Positions 17,838-44,889 of a stretch of DNA of 64,000 bases are shown here, in pieces. The notes below the pieces were generated by a model that saw only the letters and a list, made by a program, of their open reading frames with translations, had not been told where the DNA came from and made no database searches. Origin of the DNA: an uncultured Pseudomonadota bacterium (GTDB taxonomy: Bacteria > Pseudomonadota > Gammaproteobacteria > Burkholderiales > JALYOK01). The number at the start of each line of letters is the position of its first letter. The first letter of the stretch is position 1. Where the stretch lies: NCBI GenBank assembly GCA_902826775.1, contig CADEHE010000009.1:107726-171725 (forward strand). The letters run 5' to 3'. Made by a program: the position numbers and the translations under genes.

Positions 17838-17928
17838 GGAGAGATGGCCGAGCGGTCGAAGGCGCACGCCTGGAAAGCGTGTATACGTTAAAAGCGTATC
17901 GAGGGTTCGAATCCCTCTCTCTCCGCCA
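17838..17928 (+). tRNA. tRNA-Ser(GGA)
   Basis: 91 nt; type II D-arm; anticodon loop CUGGAAA; long variable arm; T-loop GGTTCGAATCC; CCA encoded. Confidence 0.85.
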
Positions 17929-18182
17929 CCGAACTCGCCCGGCGGCATCCTGTTCGAGCAACGCCGTTGCCGCAATGGTATAGTTTGGCTTCGCCAAGCG
18001 CTTGATGCGCAGCGCCGCCATATCCAAGCGTTTGAGTTGCTCATGCGTTTGGATATGGCGGGCCTCCTCGCATTGCAGCGTGGTGAACCTGGTCAGGTCC
18101 GGAAGGAAGCAGCCACAACTACTTACTGCAAGTGCCGAGGGTCAGGCTCGCCACCCATTTTTGCCGGTGCTCAGCGGTCTTC

Positions 18183-26550: not shown

Positions 26551-26627
26551 CGGGGTGTAGCGCAGTCTGGTAGCGCATCTGCTTTGGGAGCAGAGGGTCG
26601 GGAGTTCGAATCTCTCCACCCCGACCA
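26551..26627 (+). tRNA. tRNA-Pro(TGG)
   Basis: Canonical 77-nt cloverleaf: CGGGGTG acceptor, anticodon loop UUUGGGA, GGTTCGAATCT T-loop, CCA encoded. Confidence 0.85.
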
Positions 26628-29505: not shown

Positions 29506-29982
29506 ATGGATCTGCCGAGTTCTGCCCCCCTGATTCACTGCGTCTATACCAGCGCAGCAACGCAGGACTTCAGCCAAGAGAATCTTGAGGCGTTGTTGAA
29601 AAGCGCTCGAGAATTCAATGTATTACATGGTCTAACCGGTATGCTGCTTTACTCCGAAGGGAGCTTCTTTCAGGTGCTAGAGGGGCCAGAGGAAGTTGTC
29701 GCCGCACTCTATGCAAAAATTGAAAGGGACAAGCGGCACGAGCAGGTTACAAAGATAATTGTGGAGCCCATTCATAAACGATCCTTCGCCGAGTGGACCA
29801 TGGGATTCTCCAATGTCTCGCGCGAAGAACTAGCGAAAATTGAGGGCACAAACGATTTTTTCAGCAAGGCGCGATGCTTTGCCGAACTCGACGCTGGACG
29901 GGCAAAGAAGTTGCTGACGGCGTTCCGTGATGGGCGCTGGCGAAAGACGGTCCGGGGGAATGCGCGGAAATTGGCAGCATGA
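29506..29982 (+). CDS. BLUF (blue-light sensing FAD) domain protein
   Basis: BLUF motifs YTSAAT, NVLHGLTGMLLY, FFQVLEG, RHEQV, W..M. Confidence 0.75.
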   Translation: MDLPSSAPLIHCVYTSAATQDFSQENLEALLKSAREFNVLHGLTGMLLYSEGSFFQVLEGPEEVVAALYAKIERDKRHEQVTKIIVEPIHKRSFAEWTMGFSNVSREELAKIEGTNDFFSKARCFAELDAGRAKKLLTAFRDGRWRKTVRGNARKLAA

Positions 29983-30752
29983 GCGCTGGCTCGCATTTAC
30001 GTGCTGTTGATGCGGGGCATTCGCTGTCGCTCTCTTCACCGGCGCAGGTGCCCGCATTTTCATATGCCTTCCAGCCTATTATTGACGTGGAAGCGCGTGA
30101 AGTCGTTTCGTACGAGGCGTTGGTGCGCGGCCCCGGCAACGAACCAGCGTTTCATGTGTGGGAACGTGTGCCCAATTTGCTCAAGTATCAGTTTGATCAG
30201 GAAAGTCGCGTCGCAGCCATCGCGCGGGCGGCGAAACTTGGACTGGACTGCCACCTTAGTCTAAATTTCCTTCCGCAGGGGTTGTATGAGGCGCCAGCAT
30301 CGATTAGCGCCACGCTCGATGCGGCGGTCGAAAACAATGTGCCCATCGAGCATCTAAATCTCGAAGTCACAGAAGAGGAAGTGATCACCGATTGTGCGCA
30401 TTTTGCGGCGAAGCTCAACGAGTATCGACGCTTAGGGCTGAAGATCACCATTGACGATTTCGGCGCCGGCTACGCAGGGCTCAATCTTTTAGCGGAACTT
30501 CAACCCGATCAGGTCAAGATCGACATGAATCTAGTGCGCGGTATCGATAAACACGGACCGCGCCAGGCTATTGTGTGCGCGGTAGTCCAAGTATGCACCG
30601 ATCTAGGAATAGACGTGATCGCAGAGGGAGTTGAAACCGTAAGGGAATATTCCTGGTTCAACGATCAAGGCGTCTACTTGTTTCAGGGGTACCTCTTTTC
30701 TAAACCGGGCTTTGAATGCTTTCCGCCTGTGTACTACCCCACAAGCAGTTAA
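29979..30752 (+). CDS. EAL domain c-di-GMP phosphodiesterase
   Basis: EAL motif region (YEALVRG), DDFGAGY, and the KID..L loop; start overlaps the BLUF stop as ATGA. Confidence 0.75.
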   Translation: MSAGSHLRAVDAGHSLSLSSPAQVPAFSYAFQPIIDVEAREVVSYEALVRGPGNEPAFHVWERVPNLLKYQFDQESRVAAIARAAKLGLDCHLSLNFLPQGLYEAPASISATLDAAVENNVPIEHLNLEVTEEEVITDCAHFAAKLNEYRRLGLKITIDDFGAGYAGLNLLAELQPDQVKIDMNLVRGIDKHGPRQAIVCAVVQVCTDLGIDVIAEGVETVREYSWFNDQGVYLFQGYLFSKPGFECFPPVYYPTSS

Positions 30753-30947: not shown

Positions 30948-31357
30948 CTAAATGCGGACTGTCGTCAAATTCCGCTGTAGGGTACTGCTAGGTCGTGCCG
31001 CCACCGGCGGTTCCACGGCTGCCTGTGCCACGAGTTTCGCTAGCAAGTCAATCGCCTTCGCGTAATCAGCCTCCACCTGCTGGAGTTGCGCATCCTTAGA
31101 GGACTCGCGCGCCTTACCCAGCCGCATCCAGAGGACCGCGAGATCGCGCCTGGCTACGATACTGTCCTTGTCTTCGGCAAGTGCGGCTTCGCGAAAGCGC
31201 AGCGCTTCGCCGAAGGAGGCGCTTGCCGCAGGTGCCGCTCTAGCAGCATTTTGACCCTCCCCACAGCACCCTTCGCGTGGTAGGTGATCGCTGCCTCCAA
31301 AGCGACCCAAGCTTTCGGGAGCCCCGCTTGGTCAAGTGTCAGAACTAGCGTGTCCAT
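30948..31357 (-). CDS. hypothetical protein, possibly frameshifted
   Basis: Two overlapping minus-strand ORFs (31154..31357 and 30948..31310) in different frames. Confidence 0.25.
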
Positions 31358-31427: not shown

Positions 31428-32579
31428 TTACGGCCGGATTTTGACCAGATCCTTGAGCACGCCCTCCAGGCCACCGAACACCGAGATCTTGTCGATCTTC
31501 TCGGTCACCTTTTCCAGCGTTTCAAGCTCCTTCAGCCGCAGTGCGACCGGGTTGTCTTCCATCACCTTGGCGGTGTTGAGCAGAGAACGCGTTGCCGCCG
31601 TTTCTTCGCGGCGGCGAATGACGTTCGCCTGCGCAGCCTTCTCGGCTTCAACAACCTTGGCGAGGATGGTCTTCATCTCGCCCGGCAGGATAATGTCCTT
31701 CACCCCGACAGCCTCGACCTCCAATCCGTAACCCGACACACGGCGCTTGATATGCTCGCTCACCACGTCGTCGATAATGCTCTTGTTTTCAAGCAACTCG
31801 TCGAGACTACGCGTGCCCACCGCCGCACGCAGCCCAAACTGCAGTTCCTTGTACAAGAACTCCGTCGGCTTGGCCTGCTTGGCAAACGCCGTTTGCACAT
31901 CCGTGAAGCGATAGCCGGCCGTCAAGTTCACGCGCAGGCTGACCTTGTCCTTGGTCAAGATCTCCTGACCGGCCACGTCGAGCGCCTGCAAACGCAAATC
32001 GACCGTGTCGACCTTCACGTCACGCAGGTAGCGCCAGAAGTAATGAAGTCCCGACGCCAGCAAACCTGATTGCAGTTTGCCGTCGACATAAAGCAAGCCC
32101 ACGCTGTGCTCCGGCACCAAAGCCACGAACACGCCCTCGCTGCCGGCGATCTTGATGCCTCCGCGCAGAATGAGTGCGGCGGTTTCTGGCATCAACGCCG
32201 GCGCGATCGCGAAGTCCGATACGATATCGATCGTCTCGAACTCGACATCGATGTAGCCCCTCCAGTAGAGTCGGCGCGTATTCGGCGCCAGCACTTCGAC
32301 CAGCACAGCGTTTTCATAGCGCAATGCGATCTGCGTCGCGCTGAGCTCGACGGCTGTAAATTCGCGCCCGACAACCTCCGGCTCGGCCTTCATCAAGTAA
32401 TCAGCCAGCTTGTGGTCGAACGCGGTCTTCGCGAGCGAGAACTTCTCGATCGTGAGACGCTTGAGCGGGTCGAAGTACAGGTACTCGCCCGCCCCTAGAA
32501 CCTTGACGAAGTCGCCGCGCCGAAGCAACAGCGCGCGTTCGTCCTTCTTCACATGAAACTTAGTCATCAACATGGTCAT
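31428..32579 (-). CDS. SPFH/band-7 (slipin-like) domain protein
   Basis: Band-7 core followed by a coiled-coil C-terminus; start taken at MTMLMTKF. Confidence 0.7.
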   Translation of the reverse strand: MTMLMTKFHVKKDERALLLRRGDFVKVLGAGEYLYFDPLKRLTIEKFSLAKTAFDHKLADYLMKAEPEVVGREFTAVELSATQIALRYENAVLVEVLAPNTRRLYWRGYIDVEFETIDIVSDFAIAPALMPETAALILRGGIKIAGSEGVFVALVPEHSVGLLYVDGKLQSGLLASGLHYFWRYLRDVKVDTVDLRLQALDVAGQEILTKDKVSLRVNLTAGYRFTDVQTAFAKQAKPTEFLYKELQFGLRAAVGTRSLDELLENKSIIDDVVSEHIKRRVSGYGLEVEAVGVKDIILPGEMKTILAKVVEAEKAAQANVIRRREETAATRSLLNTAKVMEDNPVALRLKELETLEKVTEKIDKISVFGGLEGVLKDLVKIRP

Positions 32580-32853
32580 TCTCCTTGTTCTCAGATCAAT
32601 TGGTTCCGGCTTCCCGACCGCACAACGGGCATCCGTGTTGTCCGTGCCGGAGCACAGCCGCGCCTTGCGTGGGTCGCATCGGCCAGGCTCGATACACTCC
32701 AAGCCAGGCCAAGCAAATCACGCTCGGCTGTTGCTGCCTCGCGCGCGAACGCCAACAGCGCACAAGTCATACGGGCGGTGTGGCTGGCGATACACTGCCA
32801 ACCACCGAAGCCGGCCCCGGGTACTACAGTCGAAAGCCTTTCAAGGGCTTTGC

Positions 32854-32926
32854 TTTTCCAGCGGGATTCGAACCCGCGACCGATCGGTTATAAGCCGATT
32901 GCTCTACCCACTGAGCCATGGAAAAT
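32854..32926 (-). tRNA. tRNA-Ile(TAT)-like
   Basis: 73 nt; acceptor UUUUCCA/UGGAAAA; D-stem GCUC/GAGC; anticodon loop CUUAUAA; T-loop GGGTTCGAATCCC; no CCA. Confidence 0.6.
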
Positions 32927-33000
32927 GGAGCGTGCGGTAAGAGTCGAACTCACGACCTCGAGCTTTGGGGCTCGCGCTCTACCACTGAGCTACGCCCGCC
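32927..33000 (-). tRNA. tRNA-like with 6-nt anticodon loop (CCCAAA)
   Basis: Good acceptor, D- and T-arms and CCA, but the anticodon stem CGAGC/GCUCG encloses only 6 nt. Confidence 0.45.
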
Positions 33001-33167
33001 TATATCCATCGCTCCCGCATCGCGGTATGCGCCGATCCAACTCAAGGAGGGACGAGCGCACCAGGGAGGAACTCAAGAGCCTCACCCGCTGACAATGCGT
33101 TCACGACGAATTCGTTCTTGCCGTACTCGGCAAGATTGGATGTGGCAAATTGAAGGCAGAATGAGCT

Positions 33168-33282
33168 GGCACCGCCGGCAGGACTCGAACCCACAGCTAC
33201 GCAAAGGCAGGCGAAGGCTGAGCTTTGCTCATCTTCGCGTGCGTTCGAAGCGCGGCACTCTTCCATTGAGTTACGGCGGTGT
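33168..33282 (-). tRNA. 115-nt tRNA-like gene with 40-nt insert (type A)
   Basis: Acceptor CACCGCC/GGCGGUG plus CCA, D-arm and T-arm GGTTCGAGTCC are present. The anticodon/variable region is replaced by ACGCGAAGAUGAGCAAAGCUCAGCCUUCGCCUGCCUUUGCGU, which is identical to the insert in 36691-36806. Confidence 0.5.
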
Positions 33283-33288
33283 AAATCT

Positions 33289-33363
33289 GGTAGGCCCTGC
33301 AGGAATCGAACCTGCCTGGTGCGGAGTAAAAGTCCGCTGCCTCGCCGCTCGGCCAAGGACCCA
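33289..33363 (-). tRNA. tRNA-Lys(TTT)
   Basis: Anticodon stem GCGGA/UCCGC with loop CUUUUAC; T-arm GCAGG-TTCGATT-CCTGC; CCA encoded. Confidence 0.65.
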
Positions 33364-33370
33364 CATTGTT

Positions 33371-33474
33371 GGTTGGCGCGCACGCGCCGCGATAGGCGGC
33401 GCATGCTCTTTTCCAATCGAACCAAGCCGATCCTGTTTGTAAGACAGGTGTTTCCGCCAGGAAACCACGCGCCA
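33371..33474 (-). tRNA. tRNA-Val(TAC)-like with ~30-nt insertion 3' of the T-loop
   Basis: Acceptor GGCGCGU/GCGCGCC, D-stem GUUU/AAAC and anticodon arm CCUGU-CUUACAA-ACAGG are intact. The T-stem 3' half is replaced by an insert carrying the GCGCCGC/GCGGCGC hairpin. Confidence 0.4.
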
Positions 33475-33482
33475 GCTATCGT

Positions 33483-33726
33483 TCATAGTGATCGCGCATC
33501 ACGCCGTCGAAACCGGCCGCTGCGCAGACAGCATTTCTTGAAAGCTCTTGCTTGATCCGCACGGGCACGGATCGTTGCGACCGAGCTTATCGACGAGCTC
33601 TTTGTTACCGTGCACGACGCGTGCGCCACGTTTAACGCGGGTCTCCGATGGGAAACCTCTGCGGTGTTTGCTAGTGAGCTCGAAAGCTTTCCTGTTCTTC
33701 GTAATCGATTGCGTGCTTGTTCATGA
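33483..33726 (-). pseudogene. SEC-C motif domain small protein, disrupted by two frameshifts
   Basis: [14 protein letters not shown] (frame 1) continues in frame 2 through ...[15 protein letters not shown] and in frame 3 through [10 protein letters not shown]...; this reconstitutes the SEC-C zinc motif DPCPCGS..K.KKCC. Confidence 0.5.
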
Positions 33727-33782
33727 TGCACTCCCTCTATTGGTGCCCGGCTTACGCGGTCCAGGCTTCGCCGCATGATTGT

Positions 33783-33858
33783 TGGTAGGGGATCCAGGAT
33801 TCGAACCTGGGATGGTCGGCTTCAAAGACCGCTGCCGTGGCCGCTTGGCTAATCCCCT
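33783..33858 (-). tRNA. tRNA-Gln(TTG)
   Basis: Acceptor AGGGGAU/AUCCCCU; anticodon loop CUUUGAA with one mismatch in the stem; T-arm CCAGG-TTCGAAT-CCTGG; CCA encoded. Confidence 0.6.
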
Positions 33859-33870
33859 ACGTGTATGAGT

Positions 33871-33946
33871 TGGGGTGACCGACCGGAATCGAACCGGTAC
33901 CGCCGCGTTCACAGCGCGGCACTCTTGCCGTTGAGCTACGGCCACC
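33871..33946 (-). tRNA. tRNA-His(GTG)
   Basis: Encoded G-1 pairing with discriminator C gives the 8-bp acceptor; anticodon arm CCGCG-CUGUGAA-CGCGG; T-arm ACCGG-TTCGATT-CCGGT; CCA. Confidence 0.8.
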
Positions 33947-33956
33947 GTTGTAGTGT

Positions 33957-34034
33957 TGGCTCCGGCCAGTGGGATCGAACCACTCTCGTTCGCCGTTAAC
34001 AGCGGCGCGCTCTCACCTTGAAAGCTAGACCGGA
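33957..34034 (-). tRNA. tRNA-Asn(GTT)
   Basis: Anticodon arm CGCCG-CUGUUAA-CGGCG; T-arm AGTGG-TTCGATC-CCACT; CCA. Confidence 0.75.
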
Positions 34035-34042
34035 AAGGAGTT

Positions 34043-34117
34043 TGGCAGACCAGGAGGGATTCGAACCCCCATACGCGGTTTTGGAGACCGCTGCTCTGGC
34101 CGTTGAACCACTGGTCT
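34043..34117 (-). tRNA. tRNA-Trp(CCA)
   Basis: Anticodon arm GCGGU-CUCCAAA-ACCGC; perfect acceptor AGACCAG/CUGGUCU; CCA. Confidence 0.75.
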
Positions 34118-34191
34118 GTAGGCCGCGAGCGGCGCCGAGGGCGGAAACAACCTGCCACCGGCGCATCGCGGATAGAACTAACGCGCTCGCG

Positions 34192-35412
34192 CTACCCTTT
34201 CACGCACAGCACTTGCTTCAGGGTATGCACGACTTCGACCAGATCCGATTGCGCCGCCATCACTTCGTCGATGGACTTATATGCGCCCGGGATCTCGTCA
34301 ACCACGCCGCTGTCTTTACGACACTCGACACCGGCGGTTTGCTGCACCAAGTCCTCTTGCGAGAAGCGGCGCTTGGCTTCACCCCGGCTCATGCGGCGCC
34401 CCGCACCGTGCGAGCAGGACGCATACGCATCGGCATTCCCCTTGCCCTTCACGATGTAGGACTTCACCCCCATGCTGCCCGGGATGATGCCGAGCTGGCC
34501 TTCACGCGCTGACACCGCCCCTTTGCGCGTCACCCAGATTTGTTCGCCGAAGTGTTCTTCCAGGTTAGCGTAGTTGTGGTGACAGTTGATCGCTTCGAAT
34601 TGCGCTTCGATCTTACGACCGAGCGCATGCTCCAGCGCTCGCTTCACCAAATGCAGCATGATGTCGCGGTTAAGCGCCGCGTAGTCTTGGCACCAACGAA
34701 GGGCTGCGATGTACTCGTCGAATTCCTGACTGCCTTGGTCTAGCCACGCCAGATCACGATCCGGCAAGTGTGTTTGGTTCTGCCGAGCGAGTTCTCGAGC
34801 GGTGGTGACCGCGGCCTCGCCGACAGTTTTGCCGACGTTGCGGCTGCCGGAGTGCAGCATGATCCACACACCTTGGGCTTCATCTAGGCACAACTCGATG
34901 AAGTGATTTCCGCCACCGAGCGTACCAAGCTGTTGCCACATGCGTTTGTGATCAAATTTGCCCACACGCGCCATGATTTGCAGGGCATCGAAGCGCGGCA
35001 TCAACGCCTCGATGCGACGCTTGAGCGCCATGCCTTCAAGGCCTTGGTTACCAGGCTTGACGCTATCGCCGTGGTAGTTGAAGCCGACCGGCACATCGCG
35101 TTCGATCTGGTGACGAACTTTTTTCAAACTGTCCGGCAGATCGGAGGCGGTCAGTTGTGTCTTCATTGCCACCATGCCGCAGCCGATATCTACGCCCACT
35201 GCAGCGGGGATGATCGCACCGCGAGTTGGAATGACGCTGCCAACTGTTGCACCCATGCCGAAATGCACGTCCGGCATGATCGAGATATGACCAGCCAGGA
35301 TTGGTAACGCGGAAATGTTGCGGATTTGCTGCAACGCTTGCTGCCCGACTTCCATATCGCCGGTCCATAGGCGCACGCCCTTTATCGTTTGTTCGTATTG
35401 GTTCTTAAGCAT
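34192..35412 (-). CDS. rtcB: RNA-splicing ligase RtcB (3'-phosphate/5'-hydroxyl RNA ligase)
   Basis: ~406 aa; RtcB motifs IMPDVHFG, GSVIPT, AVGVDIGCGM and C-terminal HGAGR; SD GGAAAGGAGG lies 5 nt upstream of ATG 35412. Confidence 0.85.
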   Translation of the reverse strand: MLKNQYEQTIKGVRLWTGDMEVGQQALQQIRNISALPILAGHISIMPDVHFGMGATVGSVIPTRGAIIPAAVGVDIGCGMVAMKTQLTASDLPDSLKKVRHQIERDVPVGFNYHGDSVKPGNQGLEGMALKRRIEALMPRFDALQIMARVGKFDHKRMWQQLGTLGGGNHFIELCLDEAQGVWIMLHSGSRNVGKTVGEAAVTTARELARQNQTHLPDRDLAWLDQGSQEFDEYIAALRWCQDYAALNRDIMLHLVKRALEHALGRKIEAQFEAINCHHNYANLEEHFGEQIWVTRKGAVSAREGQLGIIPGSMGVKSYIVKGKGNADAYASCSHGAGRRMSRGEAKRRFSQEDLVQQTAGVECRKDSGVVDEIPGAYKSIDEVMAAQSDLVEVVHTLKQVLCVKG

Positions 35413-35452
35413 GACGCCTCCTTTCCGTACGGCGTTATTGTGGTTGAGAAAA

Positions 35453-35530
35453 TGGTCAGTGCGGTGAGATTCGAACTCAGGACCTCCGCGTTCCGGACGC
35501 GGCGCGCTGGTCAAGCTGCGCTACGCACTG
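35453..35530 (-). tRNA. tRNA-Pro(CGG)
   Basis: Perfect acceptor CAGUGCG/CGCACUG; D-stem GCGC/GCGC; anticodon arm CCGCG-UCCGGAA-CGCGG; CCA. Confidence 0.75.
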
Positions 35531-35536
35531 GAAATA

Positions 35537-35733
35537 TGGTCCTTGGAGTTGGGTTCGCACCATCCCCGCGCAGCGTGGCCCCTTGGTACGTGGGCAGCGA
35601 TGCGGGCGTACTCGCGCCGATAAACGTTAGCACGGTCGATGCGCGCCTACACGGTCGCTCGTTCCGAGGCGCCTCGTTTCGGCGCGCCTCGCAAGCATCG
35701 GTCGCGCGCTCTGCTAGGCTGAGCTACCCAAGG
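35537..35733 (-). tRNA. 197-nt tRNA-like unit with ~125-nt internal insertion
   Basis: Acceptor CCUUGGG/UCCAAGG plus A-CCA and canonical 5' GUAGCUCAGC...GAGC D-arm; atypical T-loop (GGUGCGAACCC); GC-palindromic internal insert, no canonical anticodon arm found. Confidence 0.35.
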
Positions 35734-35743
35734 AGATTGTTAG

Positions 35744-35816
35744 CAGGGGTGCTTGGATTTGAACCAAGGTCATTCGGTTTCAGAGGCCGACGTTCTCGCC
35801 GCTGAACTACACCCCG
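35744..35816 (-). tRNA. tRNA-Gln(CTG)
   Basis: Perfect D-stem GUUC/GAAC; anticodon loop CUCUGAA; T-arm CUUGG-TTCAAAT-CCAAG; 1:72 is a C-U mismatch (compare the weak U1-A72 of Gln tRNAs); no CCA. Confidence 0.55.
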
Positions 35817-35825
35817 CTTGATAGG

Positions 35826-35902
35826 TGGTGCCGTCGGCCAGGTATTGAGCCTGCCTCTCGGGCTTTTCAGACCCGCGCTAATCCGTCTCAGCTACAGCGG
35901 CA
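35826..35902 (-). tRNA. tRNA-Phe(GAA)-like with aberrant T-arm
   Basis: Anticodon arm CGGGU-CUGAAAA-GCCCG; T-loop CTCAATA with a bulged stem. Confidence 0.5.
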
Positions 35903-35908
35903 TTCATT

Positions 35909-35983
35909 TGGAGATGCGCCTCGGAGTCGAACCGAGTTCTCCCGCTCTGCACACGGGCACCTAAGCCGTTCGGCCAACGCATC
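35909..35983 (-). tRNA. tRNA-Cys(GCA)
   Basis: Anticodon arm CCCGU-GUGCAGA-GCGGG; T-arm CTCGG-TTCGACT-CCGAG; CCA. Confidence 0.65.
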
Positions 35984-35990
35984 ATGATTC

Positions 35991-36065
35991 TGGAGCCGCA
36001 TTCGGGAGTTGAACCCGCTTCCCCGGTTTACAAAACCGGCGCATCACCGCCAATGCTTGTGCGGC
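35991..36065 (-). tRNA. tRNA-Thr(TGT)
   Basis: D-stem GCAU/AUGC; anticodon arm CCGGU-UUUGUAA-ACCGG; CCA. Confidence 0.7.
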
Positions 36066-36071
36066 CGTACT

Positions 36072-36148
36072 TGGTGGTTCGGGCTGGAGTCGAACCAGCG
36101 TCCTGCGGGTTATGAGCCCGCTGCTCTTCCGTGCTGAGCTAGCGAACC
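36072..36148 (-). tRNA. tRNA-Met(CAT), elongator-type
   Basis: Anticodon arm GCGGG-CUCAUAA-CCCGC; paired 1:72, so not an initiator; CCA. Confidence 0.75.
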
Positions 36149-36154
36149 GAAATC

Positions 36155-36231
36155 TGGCACCCCTGGCAGGATTCGAACCTGCACCGGCGCGGGTAGAAGC
36201 CGCGTGCTCTGATCCGTTGAGCTACAGGGGC
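36155..36231 (-). tRNA. tRNA-Arg(TCT)
   Basis: Anticodon arm CGCGG-CUUCUAC-CCGCG; T-arm GCAGG-TTCGAAT-CCTGC; CCA. Confidence 0.75.
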
Positions 36232-36237
36232 AATTGT

Positions 36238-36315
36238 TGGTGCGACGCCTGCGAGTCGAACGCAGAAGCCATCCGGTTTAAGCGGACGAGGTATACCGAT
36301 TCCCATCGGCGTCGC
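36238..36315 (-). tRNA. tRNA-Leu(TAA)-like with short variable arm
   Basis: Perfect acceptor GCGACGC/GCGUCGC; anticodon arm GUCCG-CUUAAAC-CGGAU; class I-length variable loop and an atypical D-region; CCA. Confidence 0.5.
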
Positions 36316-36325
36316 AATTCGTTGA

Positions 36326-36419
36326 TGTGCCGCCCGAGATTCGAGCTCGGAAGCCGAAAGGTTTGAGCTTTCGAGGGGACGGCAAGGGGCTCTGCCCTCT
36401 GGTCAGCCGTCAGCAGCAC
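36326..36419 (-). tRNA. tRNA-Leu(CAA)-like, 94 nt, with a hairpin inserted in the D-loop
   Basis: Acceptor GUGCUGC/GCGGCAC; D-stem ACGGC/GCCGU encloses the GGGCAGAGCCC hairpin; anticodon arm with loop CUCAAAC; T-arm CCGAG-CTCGAAT-CTCGG; no CCA. Confidence 0.4.
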
Positions 36420-36429
36420 ATGGTTGATC

Positions 36430-36508
36430 TGGCGAGGCGTAGGGGATTTGAACCCCTGATCTTCGGATCGACAATCCGATGCATTCAGCCGGACTATGCT
36501 AACGCCTC
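36430..36508 (-). tRNA. tRNA-Asp(GTC)
   Basis: Perfect acceptor GAGGCGU/ACGCCUC; anticodon arm UCGGA-UUGUCGA-UCCGA; T-arm AGGGG-TTCAAAT-CCCCT; CCA. Confidence 0.8.
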
Positions 36509-36535
36509 AAAAATCCGCAGCACCAAAGCTGCGGC
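36509..36535 (-). terminator. rho-independent terminator-like hairpin inside the array
   Basis: Minus strand reads CCGCAGCUUUGGUGCUGCGG followed by AUUUUU. Confidence 0.4.
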
Positions 36536-36589
36536 AAAACCCAACTCGCAAACGTGTGAAACGCTGCCAAGTCAGGAGGAGGAGACTGT

Positions 36590-36682
36590 TGGCGGAGAGA
36601 CAGGGATTCGAACCCTGGCATCATCGTTACCGACGATTCTTGTTTAGCAGACAAGCGCCTTAGTCCACTCGGCCACCTCTCC
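36590..36682 (-). tRNA. tRNA-Ser(GCT)
   Basis: Type II D-arm GCCGAGUGGACUAAGGC; anticodon arm CUUGU-CUGCUAA-ACAAG; long variable arm; CCA. Confidence 0.75.
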
Positions 36683-36690
36683 ATTGATGC

Positions 36691-36806
36691 TGGCATCCCC
36701 GGCAGGATTCAAACCTGCGACCACGCAAAGGCAGGCGAAGCCTGAGCTTTGCTCATCTTCGCGTCGATTCGTAATCCGTCGCGCTATCCGCTGCGCTACG
36801 GGGATG
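36691..36806 (-). tRNA. 116-nt tRNA-like gene with 40-nt insert (type B)
   Basis: Perfect acceptor AUCCCCG/CGGGGAU plus G-CCA, canonical D-arm GCGC-AGCGGAUA-GCGC and T-arm GCAGG-TTTGAAT-CCTGC. The central region carries the same 40-nt block as 33168-33282. Confidence 0.5.
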
Positions 36807-36812
36807 GCGTGC

Positions 36813-36900
36813 TGGTGGAAGGCAGGTCGAGTCGAACGCCAAGCCTCGCGGCTCCTTCTGCTTTCAAGGCGGTGCCCAGGCCCCCCCAGGGTTACCTTCC
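36813..36900 (-). tRNA. type II tRNA-like, Ser(TGA)-like loop, degenerate stems
   Basis: Acceptor GGAAGGU/GCCUUCC plus A-CCA; loop CUUGAAA identical to the Ser(UGA) anticodon loop, but the anticodon and T stems do not pair well. Confidence 0.4.
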
Positions 36901-36906
36901 GTCGTT

Positions 36907-36982
36907 TGGTGGAGATGGCGGGACTTCAACCCGCACGTTCTCGCTTGCAAAGCGAGTCCTCTAGCGATTGAGCTACATCCCC
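36907..36982 (-). tRNA. tRNA-Ala(TGC)
   Basis: G3:U70 identity pair present; anticodon arm CUCGC-UUUGCAA-GCGAG; T-arm GCGGG-TTGAAGT-CCCGC; CCA. Confidence 0.8.
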
Positions 36983-36993
36983 GTGAATCTTGC

Positions 36994-37068
36994 GGTGCGT
37001 CGCCCAGGAGTTGAACCTGGACCTTCCGGATTAAGAGTCCGACACTCTGTCAGTTGAGCTATCGACGC
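36994..37068 (-). tRNA. tRNA-Lys(CTT)
   Basis: Anticodon arm UCGGA-CUCUUAA-UCCGG; T-arm CCAGG-TTCAACT-CCTGG; 7:66 mismatch; CC encoded. Confidence 0.65.
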
Positions 37069-37071
37069 ATG

Positions 37072-37173
37072 TGGTGCGGGCGGTCGGTTTCGAACCGACG
37101 GCATCGAGTTTGGAAGGCTCGCGCACGCGAGCGCAGCCGAGCACCACCGTTATTGCATCTGAGCTACACCCGC
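37072..37173 (-). tRNA. 102-nt tRNA-like gene, anticodon undetermined
   Basis: Acceptor GCGGGUG/CGCCCGC plus A-CCA, UA-GCUC D-arm start and T-arm GTCGG-TTCGAAA-CCGAC; GC-palindromic central region. Confidence 0.4.
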
Positions 37174-37179
37174 CAATAC

Positions 37180-37255
37180 TGGTGAACCGTGCGGGGCTCG
37201 AACCCGCTACCTCCGGCTTGAAGGGCCGGGCGCGCGACGCTTTGCATTACGGTTC
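37180..37255 (-). tRNA. tRNA-Glu(TTC)
   Basis: Perfect acceptor GAACCGU/ACGGUUC; anticodon arm CCGGC-CCUUCAA-GCCGG; T-arm GCGGG-TTCGAGC-CCCGC; CCA. Confidence 0.7.
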
Positions 37256-37260
37256 ACACA

Positions 37261-37336
37261 TGGAGCAGACAGCGAGCCTCGAACTCGCAGCCTCGACGCT
37301 GGCGGCGTCGCGCTCTACCAACTGAGCTATGCCTGC
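37261..37336 (-). tRNA. tRNA-Gly(GCC)
   Basis: D-arm GCUC-AGUUGGUAG-AGC; anticodon arm CGACG-CCGCCAG-CGUCG (C33); CCA. Confidence 0.7.
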
Positions 37337-37511
37337 CCTCAATCTGTGTCTAGCCTGCCGCCCCGCTCGGCGAAGCATCGAACAAACCGCGTGTGAGGAC
37401 ACGATCAGCTCGCCTTCGCCGAGCGACGACAGACTTTTTTGCCACATCCAACTTGTAAAAGATCAAGCCGCGTGCCCCCGGTCGCTATGCCGGCGCGGTA
37501 CTGCCAAAATT

Positions 37512-37621
37512 TGGTGCCCCGCAGGGGCCGCAAGGGACCCTGCCCTTTGCTTAGCCGAGATTCGAACTCGGATCATTCGGTTTCTAAGACCGACGCGTAT
37601 GCCTTGTTCCGCCAGCGGGGC
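37512..37621 (-). tRNA. tRNA-Leu(TAG)-like with 32-nt insertion between T-arm and acceptor 3' strand
   Basis: Perfect acceptor GCCCCGC/GCGGGGC plus A-CCA; Leu-type D-arm UGGCGGAACAAGGCAUACGCG; anticodon arm UCGGU-CUUAGAA-ACCGA; T-arm CCGAG-TTCGAAT-CTCGG is followed by CUAAGCAAAGGGCAGGGUCCCUUGCGGCCCCU. Confidence 0.4.
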
Positions 37622-37622
37622 G

Positions 37623-37710
37623 TGGTGGATGGTGATGGAGTTGAACCACCGGTGTTCCTATGGAATCCTGCTTTACAGGAAGGCGCCTTCGTCCGCTCGG
37701 CCAACCATCC
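37623..37710 (-). tRNA. tRNA-Tyr(GTA)
   Basis: Perfect acceptor GGAUGGU/ACCAUCC plus A-CCA; type II D-arm; anticodon loop CUGUAAA; 16-nt variable arm; T-arm GGTGG-TTCAACT-CCATC. Confidence 0.65.
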
Positions 37711-37732
37711 AAGAAATCTGCATAAACAAAAA

Positions 37733-37765
37733 GCCCGGGGACCTTGCGGTACAACCCGGGCTTTT
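37733..37765. terminator. bidirectional rho-independent terminator at the upstream edge of the tRNA array
   Basis: AAAAAGCCCGGGG...CCCGGGCTTTT perfect GC stem flanked by A/T runs. Confidence 0.5.
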
Positions 37766-38153
37766 GGTGTTCGATCAATTGATCGGTTACATCAAGTACT
37801 TCTCCCGAATTGCACACACGTATGCCGGCTCATCTCCGCTATTGAGCGCAAAGCCAGCGTCATGCGAACCCATACCTAACGGCTGGACGCACAAGGACGC
37901 GGCGGCGCGCTTTGCGGCGCGGTTCCGGTCTATGTTCATTGATGTCCTGTTCGTCAGCATGGTCGTGTTCGTGAAATTAAGGAGACGGCTCGTTCGTTAC
38001 GTCGCGCAAAGTGGCAGATGCCCAATCGGCGCGATGCTCAAGAAATGACATCGTAAGGGCTGAGTAACTCGCTGTCAAGCATTTTATGGAATATATTTTC
38101 AGATAATGCAATTTCTGCTACACTTCGCCCATCGATTTGTGAGGGTCGATACC

Positions 38154-38399
38154 ATGACATCTACTACTTCTACTAAGCCGCGCCGGCTCAAATGGCGCAC
38201 TCGTGTCGTGATGGCTGAGCGGGGCGTTCGCTCCGTTTCGGCCCTGCGCCGTCAACTCGAAGTTCTCGGCATCAAGATCTCGGATGCCCAGCTCGGGCGC
38301 ATCGTCGACGGTAAATCCAGTCACTTCAATTCAGCCGTACTCGGCGGGCTGCTTGCCGTGCTGAACTGCGGTCTTAGCGACTTGATCGCCGTTCGCTAG
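38154..38399 (+). CDS. helix-turn-helix (Cro/C1-like) domain protein
   Basis: 81 aa from MTSTTSTKPRR; HTH-like RSVSALRRQLEVLGIKISDAQLGRIVDG; followed by a terminator hairpin at 38405-38440. Confidence 0.45.
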   Translation: MTSTTSTKPRRLKWRTRVVMAERGVRSVSALRRQLEVLGIKISDAQLGRIVDGKSSHFNSAVLGGLLAVLNCGLSDLIAVR

Positions 38400-38740
38400 C
38401 CACAAGAAACAAAAAGCCCGGAGAGCTTTCGCTGTCCGGGCTTTGCGCGGCTATCTTGGTTGGTCGCTAGCGACTAACCTCCGGACTATGAGCAGCAAAG
38501 GCATCACCTGGGTGCTGCAGGGTGCCGACGGCGCCAGTTACGCCTAAGCTGAACGAGCGAATGCCTCGCAAACAATGCGATGGCCTCGTTGCTGATCTGT
38601 TTCTCTCGTACATAGCCGCGTATTCGGATGGTTGGTTGGTTCGTTTCAGCATAGCTGAATAGCGCAAGCTCGTGCTATCCAAAAACCCGGCCGATCACCG
38701 TTGATGCCGTCGGGGTGCTAGATCAGTATACCAATCCGGC

Positions 38741-39286
38741 ATGGCAACCGGCTTCTTCCCGCTTCAGTACGCGATCGCAGCCATTGCTGTTTGGCTCAAC
38801 CGCCAACAGCAAGAGGTGATCGACTATCTGAAGGAAAAGAACCGGCTACTCAAGGAGAAGCTCGACAACAAGCTTCGTTTCACCGACGCAGAGCGCCGGC
38901 GCTTAGCGGCCCGAGCGAAGTTGCTTGGCCGCAAGATTCTAGCCCAGCTCGATACGCTGGTCACGCCGGACACGCTGCTTCGCTGGCACCGAGAATTGAT
39001 CGCGCAGAAATGGAAGCAACTCCTCGAGCGCAAACCAGGTCGGCCGCGCACCAAGGAAATGATTGTGGCGCTGGTGCTTCGCTTGGCGCAGGAAAACTCT
39101 GGCTGGGGCTGCAGGCGTGTTCTCGGCGCGCTCAGTAATGTCGGCTACAAAGTTAGCCGCAGCACAATCGTCAACATCCTCGCGCTGAACGGCATCGATC
39201 CAGCACCGTTGCGCAGCAAGCGCACAACTTGGTCGACTTTCCTTAAGGCGCACTGGAAGATACTGAAGCTGGATCGTGCGGGTTGA
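38741..39286 (+). pseudogene. transposase N-terminal fragment (IS481/IS3-like HTH region, no DDE domain)
   Basis: GRPRTKEMIVALVLRLAQENSGWGCRRVLGALSNVGYKVSRSTIVNIL resembles the HTH N-terminus of integrase-core transposases; the ORF ends after 181 aa without a catalytic domain. Confidence 0.5.
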
Positions 39287-44873: not shown

Positions 44874-44889
44874 ATTGGATCAGCCTTTC

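Follow-up and report, generated by a model that had tools for sequence, protein, structure and literature searches.

An RNA switch not described before appears to control the long tRNA array in the window (the whole analysed stretch of DNA, 64,000 nucleotides); it would sense the translation of a short upstream open reading frame. Between this leader ORF and the first tRNA gene lies a conserved RNA element that can form either of two helices, an antiterminator or a terminator, which exclude each other. The array itself belongs to a kind of element already known, the long tRNA arrays ("L-arrays") defined by Santamaria-Gomez et al. 2021 (PMC8421152).

The leader element and its two helices

The following features were identified upstream of the array:

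38406..38504, minus strand: second, weaker copy of "ORF end plus terminator" with the hairpin AAAGCCCGGA...TCCGGGCTTTTTG (model R1, 35 bits)
38050..38078, minus strand: promoter-like site TTGACA-17-TACGAT, directed into the array (-35 hexamer invariant in five aligned relatives)
37787..37960, minus strand: leader ORF, 57 codons, ending in CAIREKYLM and stop (frame open in 5 of 5 close relatives despite indels)
37804..37819, minus strand: antiterminator, 5' strand, within the end of the leader ORF (RNAalifold, folds of nascent transcripts, pair counts and covariation)
37724..37764, minus strand: intrinsic terminator AAGCCCGGG-TTGTACCGCAAGGTC-CCCGGGCTT with U tract, ending 14 nt before tRNA-Tyr

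The 3' antiterminator strand is at the same time the 5' half of the terminator (37746-37760). The terminator is conserved, and the antiterminator is the minimum free energy (MFE) structure of all five nascent transcripts. In the full-length RNA the antiterminator stays the MFE structure in three of the five sequences; for the window the MFE structure is the terminator state, which is about 6 kcal/mol more stable. The leader and both switch helices are intact in the window and match the family consensus with 90 bits. No Rfam family matched the leader/terminator element in an E-value scan of positions 32400-38200.

The terminator is common to 46 metagenome loci, which were retrieved with a pattern that fixed most terminator bases and left only the loop-region hexamer and the upstream strand free to vary. 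At nearly all of them an ORF ends 21-28 nt upstream of the terminator and a tRNA array on the same strand begins 7-30 nt downstream of it. In these loci 81% of the cells pair in the antiterminator, compared with 24-42% in slid controls. At four pairs both bases are exchanged, and the covariation score was reached by none of 500 shuffles. For the terminator 99.6% of the cells pair, with changes at 91:107 (GC/AU) and 96:105 (AU/GC). Taken together, the pair changes of both helices mean that columns 91 and 96 covary with different partners in the antiterminator and in the terminator.

Judged by its substitutions, of which 256 are nonsynonymous and 66 of the synonymous type, the leader is conserved as an open frame and not as a protein, and the peptides differ between subfamilies. 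In codon adaptation it ranks at the 2.4th percentile among the local genes, and the leader of the window contains many rare codons (AGG, ATA, TTA, ACA and GGA). The start codon is uncertain since the first ATG of window-type leaders has no clear Shine-Dalgarno sequence (weak or absent); an internal AGGA-N6-ATG would give 50 codons. The promoter-like site is flanked in relatives by operator-like TTGCAT..ATGCAA palindromes, which are degenerate in the window. The second element copy, which includes a terminator-like site at 38430-38412 and has similar upstream counterparts in many related loci, is probably an insulator or a bidirectional terminator.

Units of the array

The first-pass annotation had reported about 30 tandem tRNA units on the minus strand. 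Using ARAGORN, Rfam RF00005 and alignment to orthologues, 30 tRNA or tRNA-like units were indeed found at 32852-37710, together with one intact rtcB gene. ARAGORN at default settings, a check that the annotation had proposed, called 20 minus-strand tRNA genes in this region, against 2 in the remaining 59 kb. The RF00005 gathering score was reached by 23 array units when the whole window was scanned at gathering thresholds, and by 25 when 32400-38200 was scanned by E-value. In 5' to 3' order on the minus strand the array consists of:

37623..37710, minus: tRNA-Tyr(GTA), long variable arm (ARAGORN; Rfam 46.8 bits)
37512..37621, minus: tRNA-Leu(TAG), short variable arm, 32-nt insertion between T stem and 3' acceptor strand (partial Rfam match, 37.5 bits; aligned to intact L003 and L085 copies)
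37261..37336, minus: tRNA-Gly(GCC) (ARAGORN; Rfam 56.8 bits)
37180..37255, minus: tRNA-Glu(TTC), low-scoring (Rfam 36.9 bits; ARAGORN at lowered threshold only)
37072..37173, minus: tRNA-Gly(TCC), D loop enlarged by about 26 nt (Rfam 43.9 bits over 99 nt)
36994..37068, minus: tRNA-Lys(CTT) (ARAGORN; Rfam 56.8 bits)
36907..36982, minus: tRNA-Ala(TGC), G3:U70 (ARAGORN; Rfam 58.5 bits)
36813..36900, minus: Ser(TGA)-like, long variable arm, non-canonical (Rfam tRNA-Sec 36.3 bits, below cut-off); kept in L003 and L085 by alignment
36691..36805, minus: tRNA-Arg(ACG), 40-43 nt inserted into the anticodon stem (3' strand), orthologues without it (Rfam 41.6 bits; ARAGORN intron mode)
36590..36682, minus: tRNA-Ser(GCT), long variable arm (ARAGORN; Rfam 57.7 bits)
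36430..36508, minus: tRNA-Asp(GTC) (ARAGORN; Rfam 67.8 bits)
36323..36419, minus: tRNA-Leu(CAA)-like, about 19-nt insertion in the D region with a motif shared with Leu-TAG, TCA in place of CCA (alignment to intact L085 copy only)
36238..36315, minus: tRNA-Leu(TAA), short variable arm, atypical D arm (ARAGORN)
36155..36231, minus: tRNA-Arg(TCT) (ARAGORN; Rfam 64 bits)
36072..36148, minus: tRNA-Met(CAT) (ARAGORN; Rfam 60 bits)
35991..36065, minus: tRNA-Thr(TGT) (ARAGORN; Rfam 37 bits)
35909..35983, minus: tRNA-Cys(GCA) (ARAGORN; Rfam 40.7 bits)
35826..35901, minus: tRNA-Phe(GAA), low-scoring (Rfam 40.3 bits; ARAGORN at lowered threshold only)
35743..35816, minus: tRNA-Gln(CTG) (ARAGORN; Rfam 59 bits)
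35537..35733, minus: tRNA-Ile(GAT) remnant, interrupted by about 110 inserted nt (aligned to the intact copies of L003 and L002)
35453..35530, minus: tRNA-Pro(CGG), 40 nt 5' of the rtcB start codon (ARAGORN; Rfam 48.1 bits)
34192..35412, minus: rtcB, 406 aa, intact (Pfam RtcB 426 bits, end to end)
34043..34117, minus: tRNA-Trp(CCA) (ARAGORN; Rfam 59.8 bits)
33957..34034, minus: tRNA-Asn(GTT) (ARAGORN; Rfam 31.6 bits)
33871..33946, minus: tRNA-His(GTG), encoded G-1 and C73 (ARAGORN; Rfam 64 bits)
33783..33858, minus: tRNA-Gln(TTG) (ARAGORN; Rfam 56.5 bits)
33479..33724, minus: small interrupted ORF, its CPCG...KKCC (SEC-C-like) motif broken by a frameshift (translation)
33370..33473, minus: tRNA-Val(TAC) pseudogene, 29-33-nt hairpin in place of the 3' strand of the T stem, which is lost (alignment to intact L082 and L085 copies)
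33288..33362, minus: tRNA-Lys(TTT) (ARAGORN; Rfam 52.9 bits)
33167..33280, minus: tRNA-Arg(TCG), same 42-nt insertion as Arg-ACG, repeat family D6 (Rfam 42 bits)
32926..32999, minus: tRNA-like, 6-nt anticodon loop CCCAAA (ARAGORN "???"; Rfam 53.3 bits)
32852..32925, minus: tRNA-Ile(TAT), last unit, no encoded CCA (ARAGORN; Rfam 72.9 bits)

About 22 of the 30 units look usable; in about 22 tRNA genes both the canonical structure and the identity elements are preserved. The identity features pointed out earlier are present, namely G-1 of tRNA-His (33946) opposite C73, G3:U70 of tRNA-Ala and the long variable arms of tRNA-Tyr and tRNA-Ser(GCT). Likewise all anticodons listed before were recovered, but Arg-ACG, Arg-TCG, Gly-TCC and the Ile-GAT remnant had been missed. 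The claim that all 20 amino acids are covered holds only when broken genes are counted; the array contains no intact valine tRNA gene. The Leu-CAA, Val-TAC and Ile-GAT units are recognisable by alignment to intact orthologues of related arrays only, the tRNA-Sec match of the Ser(UGA)-like unit comes from the Rfam E-value scan of 32400-38200, and Leu-TAA, called by ARAGORN, has no Rfam match even at E<=1. The 6-nt loop next to the array end is kept in L003 and L082, and its stem covaries. The last unit carries the anticodon CAT, GAT, AAT or AAC among relatives as opposed to TAT in the window.

Seven of the 30 units have an insert of about 19-110 nt not present in relatives, the comparison being loose for Gly-TCC. 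With these seven interrupted tRNA genes and an HNH gene reduced to a stub (see below), the window copy of the cassette is, by its sequence, partly decayed, and the earlier description as a complete one-per-amino-acid array therefore overstates its condition. We considered whether the insertions could instead be introns, excised and the halves joined by RtcB as in archaea. ARAGORN in intron mode reads Arg-ACG and Arg-TCG in this way, exact excision of 40 nt (Arg-ACG) or 32 nt (Leu-TAG) would give perfect stems, and two insert families occur twice each, within the 64-kb window only inside tRNA genes. Nevertheless, we regard this as highly improbable. The inserts are absent from all relatives including the closest, they are situated at 40/41, 65/66, in the D loop, T arm and variable region and not at 37/38, no bulge-helix-bulge motif was found when the structures were drawn by hand, and no splicing endonuclease was identified. 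In Val-TAC and Arg-TCG the tRNA bases flanking the inserts are replaced, so that excision would restore no tRNA.

rtcB and the conserved module

Around the array lie three further genes, one of them a stub:

38106..38399, plus strand: gene of a Cro/C1-type HTH regulator, reading away from the array (Pfam HTH_26, E 1.5e-6)
31428..32573, minus strand: SPFH/Band_7 gene (Pfam Band_7, E 2.5e-27)
31262..31357, minus strand: HNH homing-endonuclease gene stub, only the first ~32 codons (tblastn with L082 and L003 HNH proteins)

The HTH gene is found at the same position in L002, L003, L084, L085, L093, L116, L119 and L135, and the SPFH/Band_7 gene is syntenic in L002, L003, L082, L084, L087 and 13 metagenome loci. 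The module order HTH-leader-array-rtcB-array-SPFH is conserved in L002 and L003 at 74-85% nucleotide identity. The flanks of the module are unrelated in L002, L003, L084, L085, L087 and L082, which together with the conserved module agrees with horizontal transfer and with the L-array definition as published. By this comparison the array operon is horizontally acquired, bounded upstream by the divergent HTH gene and downstream by the SPFH/Band_7 gene. The small ORF that had been noted as a pseudogene is interrupted as proposed; it is 77% identical to an 82-codon ORF of L082, and a SEC-C-type small gene was called in L089.

The embedded rtcB gene, reported earlier, codes for a 3'-phosphate/5'-OH RNA ligase and is full length and no frameshifted remnant. 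Every metal-binding and guanylylation residue aligns with P. horikoshii RtcB, the catalytic Asp, Cys, His and Asn residues are conserved, and a strong ribosome-binding site, AAGGAGG, precedes the gene. Homologues with 86-97% identity are located in related arrays; rtcB lies within or terminates those of L002, L003, L084, L085, L087, L090 and L136, as well as the Acidobacteria array L035 (RtcB 52% identical). Among 80 genome loci of RtcB relatives, 75 have no array, all at <=59% identity. The gene is absent from L093, L104-L106, L113 and L120, close relatives sharing leader, regulator and SPFH gene. In L082, the closest relative, a transposon has truncated rtcB at its 5' end and removed the upstream half of the array; L094 and L133 have kept the leader-terminator without an array. 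Judged by gene content, rtcB is an accessory, optional passenger of the array family, and the SPFH/Band_7 gene is the constant protein partner. The tRNA gene disruptions (7/30), the loss of HNH and the truncation in L082 imply that selection on the cassette may be weak.

The first-pass annotation had proposed a supply-and-repair module and considered it not established as a system type. The anatomy was right and recurs in related arrays. The proposal is plausible but not new, since the association of array and rtcB, their co-regulation and supply plus repair were published in 2021. In cyanobacterial L-operons rtcB is found in the neighbourhood and co-induced with the array under translational stress; RtcB was proposed to repair cleaved tRNAs and the array to boost or "sponge" the tRNA pool (PMC8421152). 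In Anabaena, translation inhibitors induce the L-array and rtcB, which aid survival; cleaved operonic tRNAs and induced VapC genes were observed there as well (PMC8421152). RtcB together with tRNA genes is widely discussed for phages, and 707 phage records encode RtcB.

Proposed control and alternatives

The reading we favour, with moderate confidence, is that the L-array operon, with about 30 supernumerary tRNA genes and rtcB, is switched by trp-like attenuation at the leader ORF. Transcription would start at the promoter-like site (38078-38050). A ribosome translating the leader through its stop codon would unwind the 5' strand of the antiterminator and hold it apart; the terminator hairpin would then form and transcription would end 14 nt before tRNA-Tyr. 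If leader translation were slow, stalled or absent, possibly owing to tRNA depletion or cleavage, starvation or ribosome inhibitors, the antiterminator would form first and RNA polymerase would enter the array. Cleavage by RNase P and 3' processing would set the tRNAs and the rtcB mRNA free. The cell would thereby gain a surge of spare tRNAs, among them decoders of the codons rarest in the host, together with the SPFH protein and a ligase capable of resealing RNA cuts with 2',3'-cyclic-phosphate/5'-OH ends. A ribosome whose A site holds the stop codon would cover the RNA up to the antiterminator strand but not the strand itself, and the direction of the switch is therefore argued on kinetic and steric grounds. 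Against this reading, neither a run of regulatory codons nor a 1:2 "anti-antiterminator" pairing was found.

The array could also be a decaying relic that arrived horizontally, is silent and is being lost, its tRNAs and RtcB irrelevant to the host. The lineage-specific insertions in 7 of 30 units, the stem strand missing from Val-TAC, the HNH gene of 32 codons, the broken SEC-C-like ORF and the degenerate palindromes point in this direction, as do the transposon loss in L082 and the leader-terminators without array in L094 and L133; published L-arrays are, moreover, cryptic and poorly transcribed by description. We nevertheless think a relic unlikely, because rtcB is full length, retains every catalytic residue and has a strong ribosome-binding site, about 22 tRNA genes are canonical in structure and identity elements, and leader and switch helices are intact at 90 bits. 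Slightly less unlikely, though still doubtful, is a specific counter to anticodon nucleases (toxins or phage-defence tRNases), in which the tRNAs act as replacements or decoys and RtcB reseals cut tRNAs. The chemistry of RtcB fits the ends that such nucleases produce, relatives differ in the last unit's anticodon (TAT, CAT, GAT, AAT, AAC), the odd tRNA with the 6-nt loop is conserved, some relatives adjoin VapC, ParE or ABC-ATPase defence-type genes, and the cleavage and VapC induction in Anabaena would agree with it. However, the conserved module has no nuclease gene, rtcB is dispensable in many family members, and the sensor proposed here would answer any failure of leader translation, not cleavage as such.

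A further alternative concerns the reader of the switch. The two helices could be real while a protein (the HTH regulator or another) or a small ligand decides between them, the upstream ORF encoding a genuine small protein. The weak or absent Shine-Dalgarno sequence of window-type leaders, the conserved C-terminal peptide motif A-I-R/W-E and the extra ORF between terminator and array in L087 are consistent with this. Against it, and making it improbable in our view, the conserved C-terminal codons fall on the antiterminator strand, and these positions covary with the terminator; outside them the peptide can change freely, and almost every subfamily has an ORF whose end lies 21-28 nt before the terminator.

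Composition and condition of the tRNA array

ARAGORN detected 22 tRNA genes in the 64-kb window, 20 of which are arranged head to tail on the minus strand at 32852-37710. With the Rfam tRNA model, 23 array units reached the gathering score in a gathering scan of the whole window and 25 in an E-value scan of the region 32400-38200. The Rfam set includes units of 99-112 nt, for which ARAGORN needs the intron mode or lowered thresholds, and a Ser(UGA)-like unit was found as a tRNA-Sec match under the Rfam cut-off. Three extra units were revealed only when the apparent gaps between array genes were aligned with intact tRNA genes that occupy the corresponding places in related arrays. Taking ARAGORN, Rfam and this alignment together, the array totals 30 units (tRNA or tRNA-like), as the first-pass annotation had estimated, and every anticodon listed there is present. 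All units lie on the minus strand, separated by gaps of mostly 0-13 nt, and the density is about 4-5 per kb (20 genes by ARAGORN to 25 by Rfam in 4.86 kb). The array is non-periodic: its units have different anticodons, and repeat families arise only from tRNA arms that the units share.

About 22 of the 30 units look usable. Nineteen units were called without defects either by both programs or by ARAGORN, and the Glu, Phe, and Ser-UGA units are low-scoring yet kept in relatives. The identity features described earlier can be read in the sequence, namely a His unit with G-1 encoded at 33946 opposite C73, an Ala unit with G3:U70, and long variable arms in Tyr and Ser-GCT. The statement that all 20 amino acids are covered holds if broken genes are counted; for intact genes it does not, since Val-TAC has a hairpin where its 3' T-stem strand should be, which leaves valine without an intact gene.

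Array units with inserted or replaced segments
36323-36419, minus strand, Leu-CAA, recognized by alignment to related arrays; insert motif in the D region
33370-33473, minus strand, Val-TAC, recognized by alignment to related arrays; hairpin in place of the 3' T-stem strand
35537-35733, minus strand, Ile-GAT, recognized by alignment to related arrays; about 110 nt in the variable region
36691-36805, minus strand, Arg-ACG; 42-nt insert in the 3' strand of the anticodon stem
33167-33280, minus strand, Arg-TCG; same 42-nt insert as Arg-ACG, in the 3' strand of the anticodon stem
37512-37621, minus strand, Leu-TAG; insert motif between the T stem and the acceptor strand
37072-37173, minus strand, Gly-TCC; about 26 extra nt in the D loop

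Insertions of about 19-110 nt are found in seven tRNA genes and are absent from the orthologues in L002, L003, L082, L084, and L085, five of the 136 loci gathered as relatives (L001-L136). The insert motif AGGGCAGRGYCCCTTGC..., related to the 42-nt Arg insert, occurs in Leu-TAG and Leu-CAA. We considered whether the insertions could be archaeal-type introns that are spliced with RtcB. This was rejected, since they are missing from all relatives, replace tRNA bases in two cases and are located at non-canonical sites (40/41, 65/66, D loop, T arm, and variable region; not 37/38). Manual inspection of the sequences revealed no bulge-helix-bulge motif at the insert junctions. The insertions may instead stem from a miniature mobile element, from repair scars of HNH cleavage or from gene conversion between the two Arg genes. 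Two insert families, each present twice and inside tRNA genes only, share the core AGCAAAG..CAGG..TTGCG; the repeated inserts were found nowhere else in the window or in the 136 related loci, except in L001, which is the same sequence. Outside the tRNA genes, the HNH homing endonuclease gene is a stub of the first 32 codons only (31262-31357) and is full-length in relatives, and the small pseudogene noted before within the array is an interrupted SEC-C-like ORF. The copy in the window is partly decayed.

Some units deviate from standard tRNA structure. The variable arm is short in all Leu-type units, namely TAA (36238-36315), TAG, and CAA, and in their intact orthologues in relatives, which sets them apart from normal bacterial tRNA-Leu. 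The last-but-one unit of the array (32926-32999), directly abutting the last tRNA, is tRNA-like with a 6-nt anticodon loop. It is kept in L003 (11960-12033), L082 (12190-12263), and L087 (6321-6392), and its anticodon stem covaries (CGAGC/GCUCG in the window, CGGGC/GCCCG in L003); in L002 a 13-nt loop is found at this position. A non-tRNA spacer of 167 nt (33000-33166) precedes the unit and is conserved in L003 and L002, where it lies within HSPs of 82% and 80% identity; in L082 this position is taken by a spacer of about the same length. The last tRNA (32852-32925) has U1-A72 and no encoded CCA, and its anticodon varies between TAT, CAT, GAT, AAT, and AAC in the window and its orthologues in L002, L003, L082, L087, L089, and L090. 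A terminator-like hairpin with a U run (36515-36534, minus strand) is situated between Ser-GCT and Asp-GTC. A probable tRNA gene remnant lies in the 175-nt spacer after Leu-TAG (37337-37511), where a short stretch is similar to the 5' portion of the genes for Tyr and Lys-TTT (repeat families D16 and D19).

The rtcB gene and the surroundings of the module

The RNA ligase RtcB of Escherichia coli is encoded in the RNA-repair operon rtcBA, which is under RtcR/sigma-54 control. The rtcB gene embedded in the array (34192-35412) belongs to the same ligase family and is a full-length ORF that matches Pfam PF01139 from end to end (426 bits, residues 29-406, profile positions 1-426). The catalytic residues, that is the metal-binding Asp, Cys, and His and the guanylylated His, are kept, and the motifs D..C, GNHF, HSGSR, HHN, and HGAGR align with those of PH1602, the solved P. 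horikoshii enzyme. An AAGGAGG ribosome-binding site precedes the ATG by 5 nt. The initial observation of a tRNA array with an embedded rtcB gene was borne out. A classic rtcBA/rtcR operon was rejected: from the HTH gene (38106) to the SPFH gene (31428), neither rtcA nor rtcR is present, and rtcB and the leader ORF are the sole intact protein genes. Unlike in E. coli, rtcB is embedded in a tRNA operon.

An exact-sequence search with the RtcB protein matched a single other contig, L001, which is 9.8 kb long and identical to the window, and the homologues of 86-97% identity are metagenomic. Among 80 genome loci with RtcB relatives, tRNA genes cluster around rtcB only in L002 and L003 (90-91% identity), L020 (54%), and L035, a Terriglobales MAG with 25 tRNA genes and an RtcB of 52% identity; the remaining loci have an identity of at most 59% and zero or one tRNA gene. 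The contigs of the closer metagenomic homologues (L082-L090) all contain arrays or array remnants. A comparison with phages and plasmids yielded RtcB matches of at most 59% identity, and no phage structural or replication genes were found around the array in the window, so a phage or plasmid origin was rejected. In L035 (4367-7297 and 13269-18687) the Acidobacteria array with RtcB has an interruption, and large SMC/AAA ATPase genes (AbiEii-type AAA_21, ABC-3C middle component) come after it as neighbours of the defence type.

The window aligns with L002 and L003 over a stretch that begins at the HTH gene, takes in the array and rtcB, and finishes with the SPFH/Band_7 gene; the nucleotide identity is 74-85%. 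No alignment extends past the HTH and SPFH genes in these two loci, and the flanking genes differ in every relative. Thus the unit consists of the divergent Cro/C1 HTH gene (38106-38399, plus strand), the leader, tRNAs, rtcB, tRNAs, sometimes a SEC-C-type ORF, HNH, and SPFH (31428-32573, minus strand). This one module is found in unrelated flanks in L002, L003, L082, L084, L085, and L087 and, judged by these comparisons, appears to behave as transferable cargo. Integration at the tRNA-Pro gene (26551) was considered and rejected: no integrase is found among the ORFs scanned, and the synteny stops at the HTH and SPFH genes.

The module is not retained completely in all loci. L133 has retained the switch (the end of the leader ORF, antiterminator, and terminator upstream of the first array tRNA), HNH, and SPFH and has lost the array; L094 has the switch alone. 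Among the switch loci with at least 3 kb of downstream sequence, rtcB is found only in the window clade, L090, and L136. L091 contains a distant rtcB copy on the opposite strand, and L093, with a regulator and an SPFH protein of 78% and 85% identity to those of the window, is yet without rtcB. Therefore rtcB is a recurrent but optional passenger, derived from more than one RtcB lineage (51-97% identity). At least 13 of these switch loci have an SPFH/Band_7 gene after the array, often with HNH. In L082, the closest relative (RtcB 97% identical), the upstream half of the array and the beginning of rtcB have been lost to a transposon that carries rve, AAA_22, and TniQ genes.

The SPFH/Band_7 gene is the most constant protein-coding partner of the array family, above rtcB; an N-terminal region of about 150 aa of its product has no Pfam match, and we found no paper tying SPFH proteins to tRNA arrays. 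The transposon of L082 (7190-9757) is Tn7/Tn5053-like and leaves an rtcB truncated to 349 aa, with ParE/PaaA2, VapC, and IS66 genes nearby. Just outside the module of the window lies an ORF of 181 aa (38741-39286) with a transposase-type HTH_32 domain that looks like an IS fragment. On the other side BLUF (blue-light sensor) and EAL (c-di-GMP phosphodiesterase) genes (29506-30752) adjoin the module. Two giant ORFs of 1526 and 1501 aa follow each other at 40293-49395 (minus strand). The GC content drops to 0.54-0.57 at 26-31 kb and 37-41 kb and remains at about 0.59 in the array itself. The plus strand carries genes for tRNA-Ser(GGA), the small SRP RNA, and tRNA-Pro(TGG) at 17838-18155 and 26551-26627, which suggests a chromosomal context.

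The leader ORF and two helices upstream of the array

A promoter-like sequence (TTGACA-17-TACGAT) is situated at 38078-38050, preceded in relatives by TTGCAT..ATGCAA palindromes. It is followed by a leader ORF (37960-37787 in the window) of 57-67 codons in close relatives, the frame of which survives several indels. A strong intrinsic terminator (37764-37724) starts 23 nt past the leader stop codon and ends 14 nt before tRNA-Tyr, the first tRNA of the array. This layout of promoter, leader, and terminator is kept in all close relatives. RNAalifold predicted a competing antiterminator helix, in which GYGUGUGCAAUUYGGG at the end of the ORF (37819-37804) pairs with CCCGGRUUGCACCGC in the 5' half and loop of the terminator (37760-37746). 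For nascent transcripts ending at the terminator loop, the antiterminator is the fold of lowest energy in all five sequences, and in three of them it keeps this rank in the full-length RNA.

A metagenome scan used a pattern in which the invariant terminator bases alone were fixed, and it retrieved 46 loci. Almost all of these have an ORF that ends 21-28 nt upstream of the terminator and a tRNA array on the same strand that begins 7-30 nt downstream, as counted from the searched motif, which stops at the first two bases of the U-tract. Nearly every subfamily has such an ORF, and its spacing from the terminator is fixed. Across 36 distinct sequences 81% of the antiterminator cells are paired, versus 24-42% with slid partners. 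Two-sided changes occur in four pairs (24:96 UA/CG, 29:91 CG/UG/UA, 25:95, and 27:93), and the covariation score was reached by none of 500 shuffles. A structure-aware realignment with a covariance model left the pair counts unchanged. The terminator helix is 99.6% paired and has changes at 91:107 (GC/AU) and 96:105 (AU/GC). Columns 91 and 96 thus covary with different partners, as in a two-state switch.

The view of the leader as a conserved small protein was considered and rejected, since the differences are mostly nonsynonymous (256 versus 66 synonymous in the largest subfamily) and the leader peptides form unrelated subfamilies, alike only at the RNA helix. The pattern of substitutions suggests that the open frame matters, not the protein. 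Nor does the leader belong to a known Rfam family, as there were zero matches even at E<=1. The leader of the window uses 19 different amino acids and several rare codons, among them AGG, ATA, TTA, ACA, and GGA; its codon adaptation is at the 2.4th percentile of local genes. It contains no run of regulatory codons for one amino acid. The first ATG of window-type leaders has no clear Shine-Dalgarno sequence, and an internal AGGA-N6-ATG exists. The footprint of a ribosome terminating at the stop codon merely abuts the antiterminator helix, and no upstream pairing partner of the antiterminator strand was found.

Proposed mode of action and relation to known systems

Starting from the two helices and their linkage to the leader ORF and the tRNA array, which the comparison of the loci establishes, we infer the following mechanism. 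By analogy with the trp attenuator, a ribosome translating the leader to its stop codon would unwind the antiterminator strand and keep it away from its partner, allowing the local terminator hairpin to form and end transcription. Should the ribosome fail to start, or lag at any point of the 40-67 codons, the antiterminator would already be in place by the time the polymerase reaches the 3' strand of the terminator, and the polymerase would enter the array. Because nearly all amino acids and several rare codons are used, the leader is proposed to sense general translational trouble and not the lack of one amino acid. The tRNAs would be freed by RNase P and 3' processing, and the rtcB message would be freed along with them; in E. 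coli the messages of protein genes cotranscribed with tRNAs are released likewise. The Cro/C1 HTH protein probably adds repression at the promoter level.

The trp, his, and phe leaders are ribosome-mediated transcription attenuators, and antibiotic-sensing attenuator leaders have been described for bmrCD (PMC4191407) and mef/mel (PMC4335068). With these the switch shares a leader ORF, an intrinsic terminator, and the 5' strand of the antiterminator at the end of the ORF, so that the position of the ribosome would select the fold. It differs in that the genes under its proposed control are tRNAs and an RNA ligase instead of biosynthetic or resistance genes and in its leader of 40-67 codons with neither a single-codon run nor a detectable upstream partner of the antiterminator strand. 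In the literature searched, no attenuator or leader of this kind before a tRNA array is reported, and it is the conserved, proposed leader-ORF attenuator that gives the locus its added interest.

The array itself has known counterparts. L-arrays, i.e. long, non-periodic, and horizontally spread tRNA gene arrays, occur in some species of many phyla, among them all classes of Proteobacteria; an HNH gene is linked to them, and rtcB was found close to cyanobacterial L-operons (Santamaria-Gomez et al. 2021, PMC8421152). In Anabaena the array and rtcB are co-induced by translation inhibitors, and it was proposed that the array enlarges or buffers the pool of tRNAs and that RtcB mends those that have been cleaved (PMC8421152). 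The combined supply-and-repair module, which the first-pass annotation did not know as an established system type, is therefore a published hypothesis; as an interpretation it is plausible, and somewhat overstated for a decayed copy. The window resembles L-arrays such as the trn operon of Anabaena sp. PCC 7120 in its same-strand, non-periodic, apparently supernumerary tRNA genes of seemingly patchy distribution with flanks differing per genome, in an rtcB that is nearby or co-regulated, in the proposed role in translational stress, and in some pseudogene members; the HNH gene linked to L-arrays is present as a stub. It differs in that rtcB lies between the tRNA genes and that SPFH and Cro/C1 HTH genes are added. 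We regard it as a new proteobacterial member of the L-arrays. Control is apparently exerted in cis by the leader-ORF attenuator, whereas in Anabaena the RHH repressor TrcR acts on direct repeats (Wang et al. 2023, PMC10272220); sensing of general stress would fit the measured behaviour of the Anabaena array, by different means. Like the tRNA array units of Acidithiobacillus and other prokaryotes (Tran et al. 2016, PMC4758250), the window has at least 20 tRNA genes at no fewer than 2 per kb, and both are associated with mobile DNA; ligases, HNH genes, terminators, and introns do not feature in that survey. Jumbo phages and mycobacteriophages likewise combine tRNA genes and RtcB in one mobile genome. 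RtcB is encoded in 707 phage records, and tRNA repair is the role discussed for it, but in the two phage loci inspected rtcB has no tRNA genes nearby.

On balance we slightly favour the view that the locus is a mobile "translation rescue" cassette under a new type of attenuator, in which a generic leader ORF would gauge the ability of ribosomes to translate and, if this fails, the antiterminator would open the way to about 30 spare tRNA genes, the RtcB ligase, and the SPFH protein. If so, it would be the first known leader-peptide attenuator gating tRNA supply and would provide a direct cis-acting mechanism for the reported stress induction of L-arrays. No dedicated sensor protein would then be needed to couple the supply of tRNAs and the repair of RNA to how the ribosome is faring, and attenuation, the textbook control of amino-acid operons, would be extended to the tRNA pool. 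Why dozens of redundant tRNA genes are retained in L-arrays, and how they are silenced until needed, is understood in one cyanobacterium only; a cis attenuator would make this question directly testable in Proteobacteria and predicts exactly the mutations that should lock the array on or off. The constant SPFH partner and the optional RtcB offer handles on the role of the cassette. Should the attenuator reading fail, the locus would be an unremarkable, partly decayed representative of a class already described.

A second attenuator-like element, again an ORF end with a terminator, is found at 38406-38504 (minus strand), where the convergent HTH gene ends. It follows a 71-codon ORF (38682-38467), has upstream look-alikes in many related loci, and may be an insulator or a duplicated attenuator.
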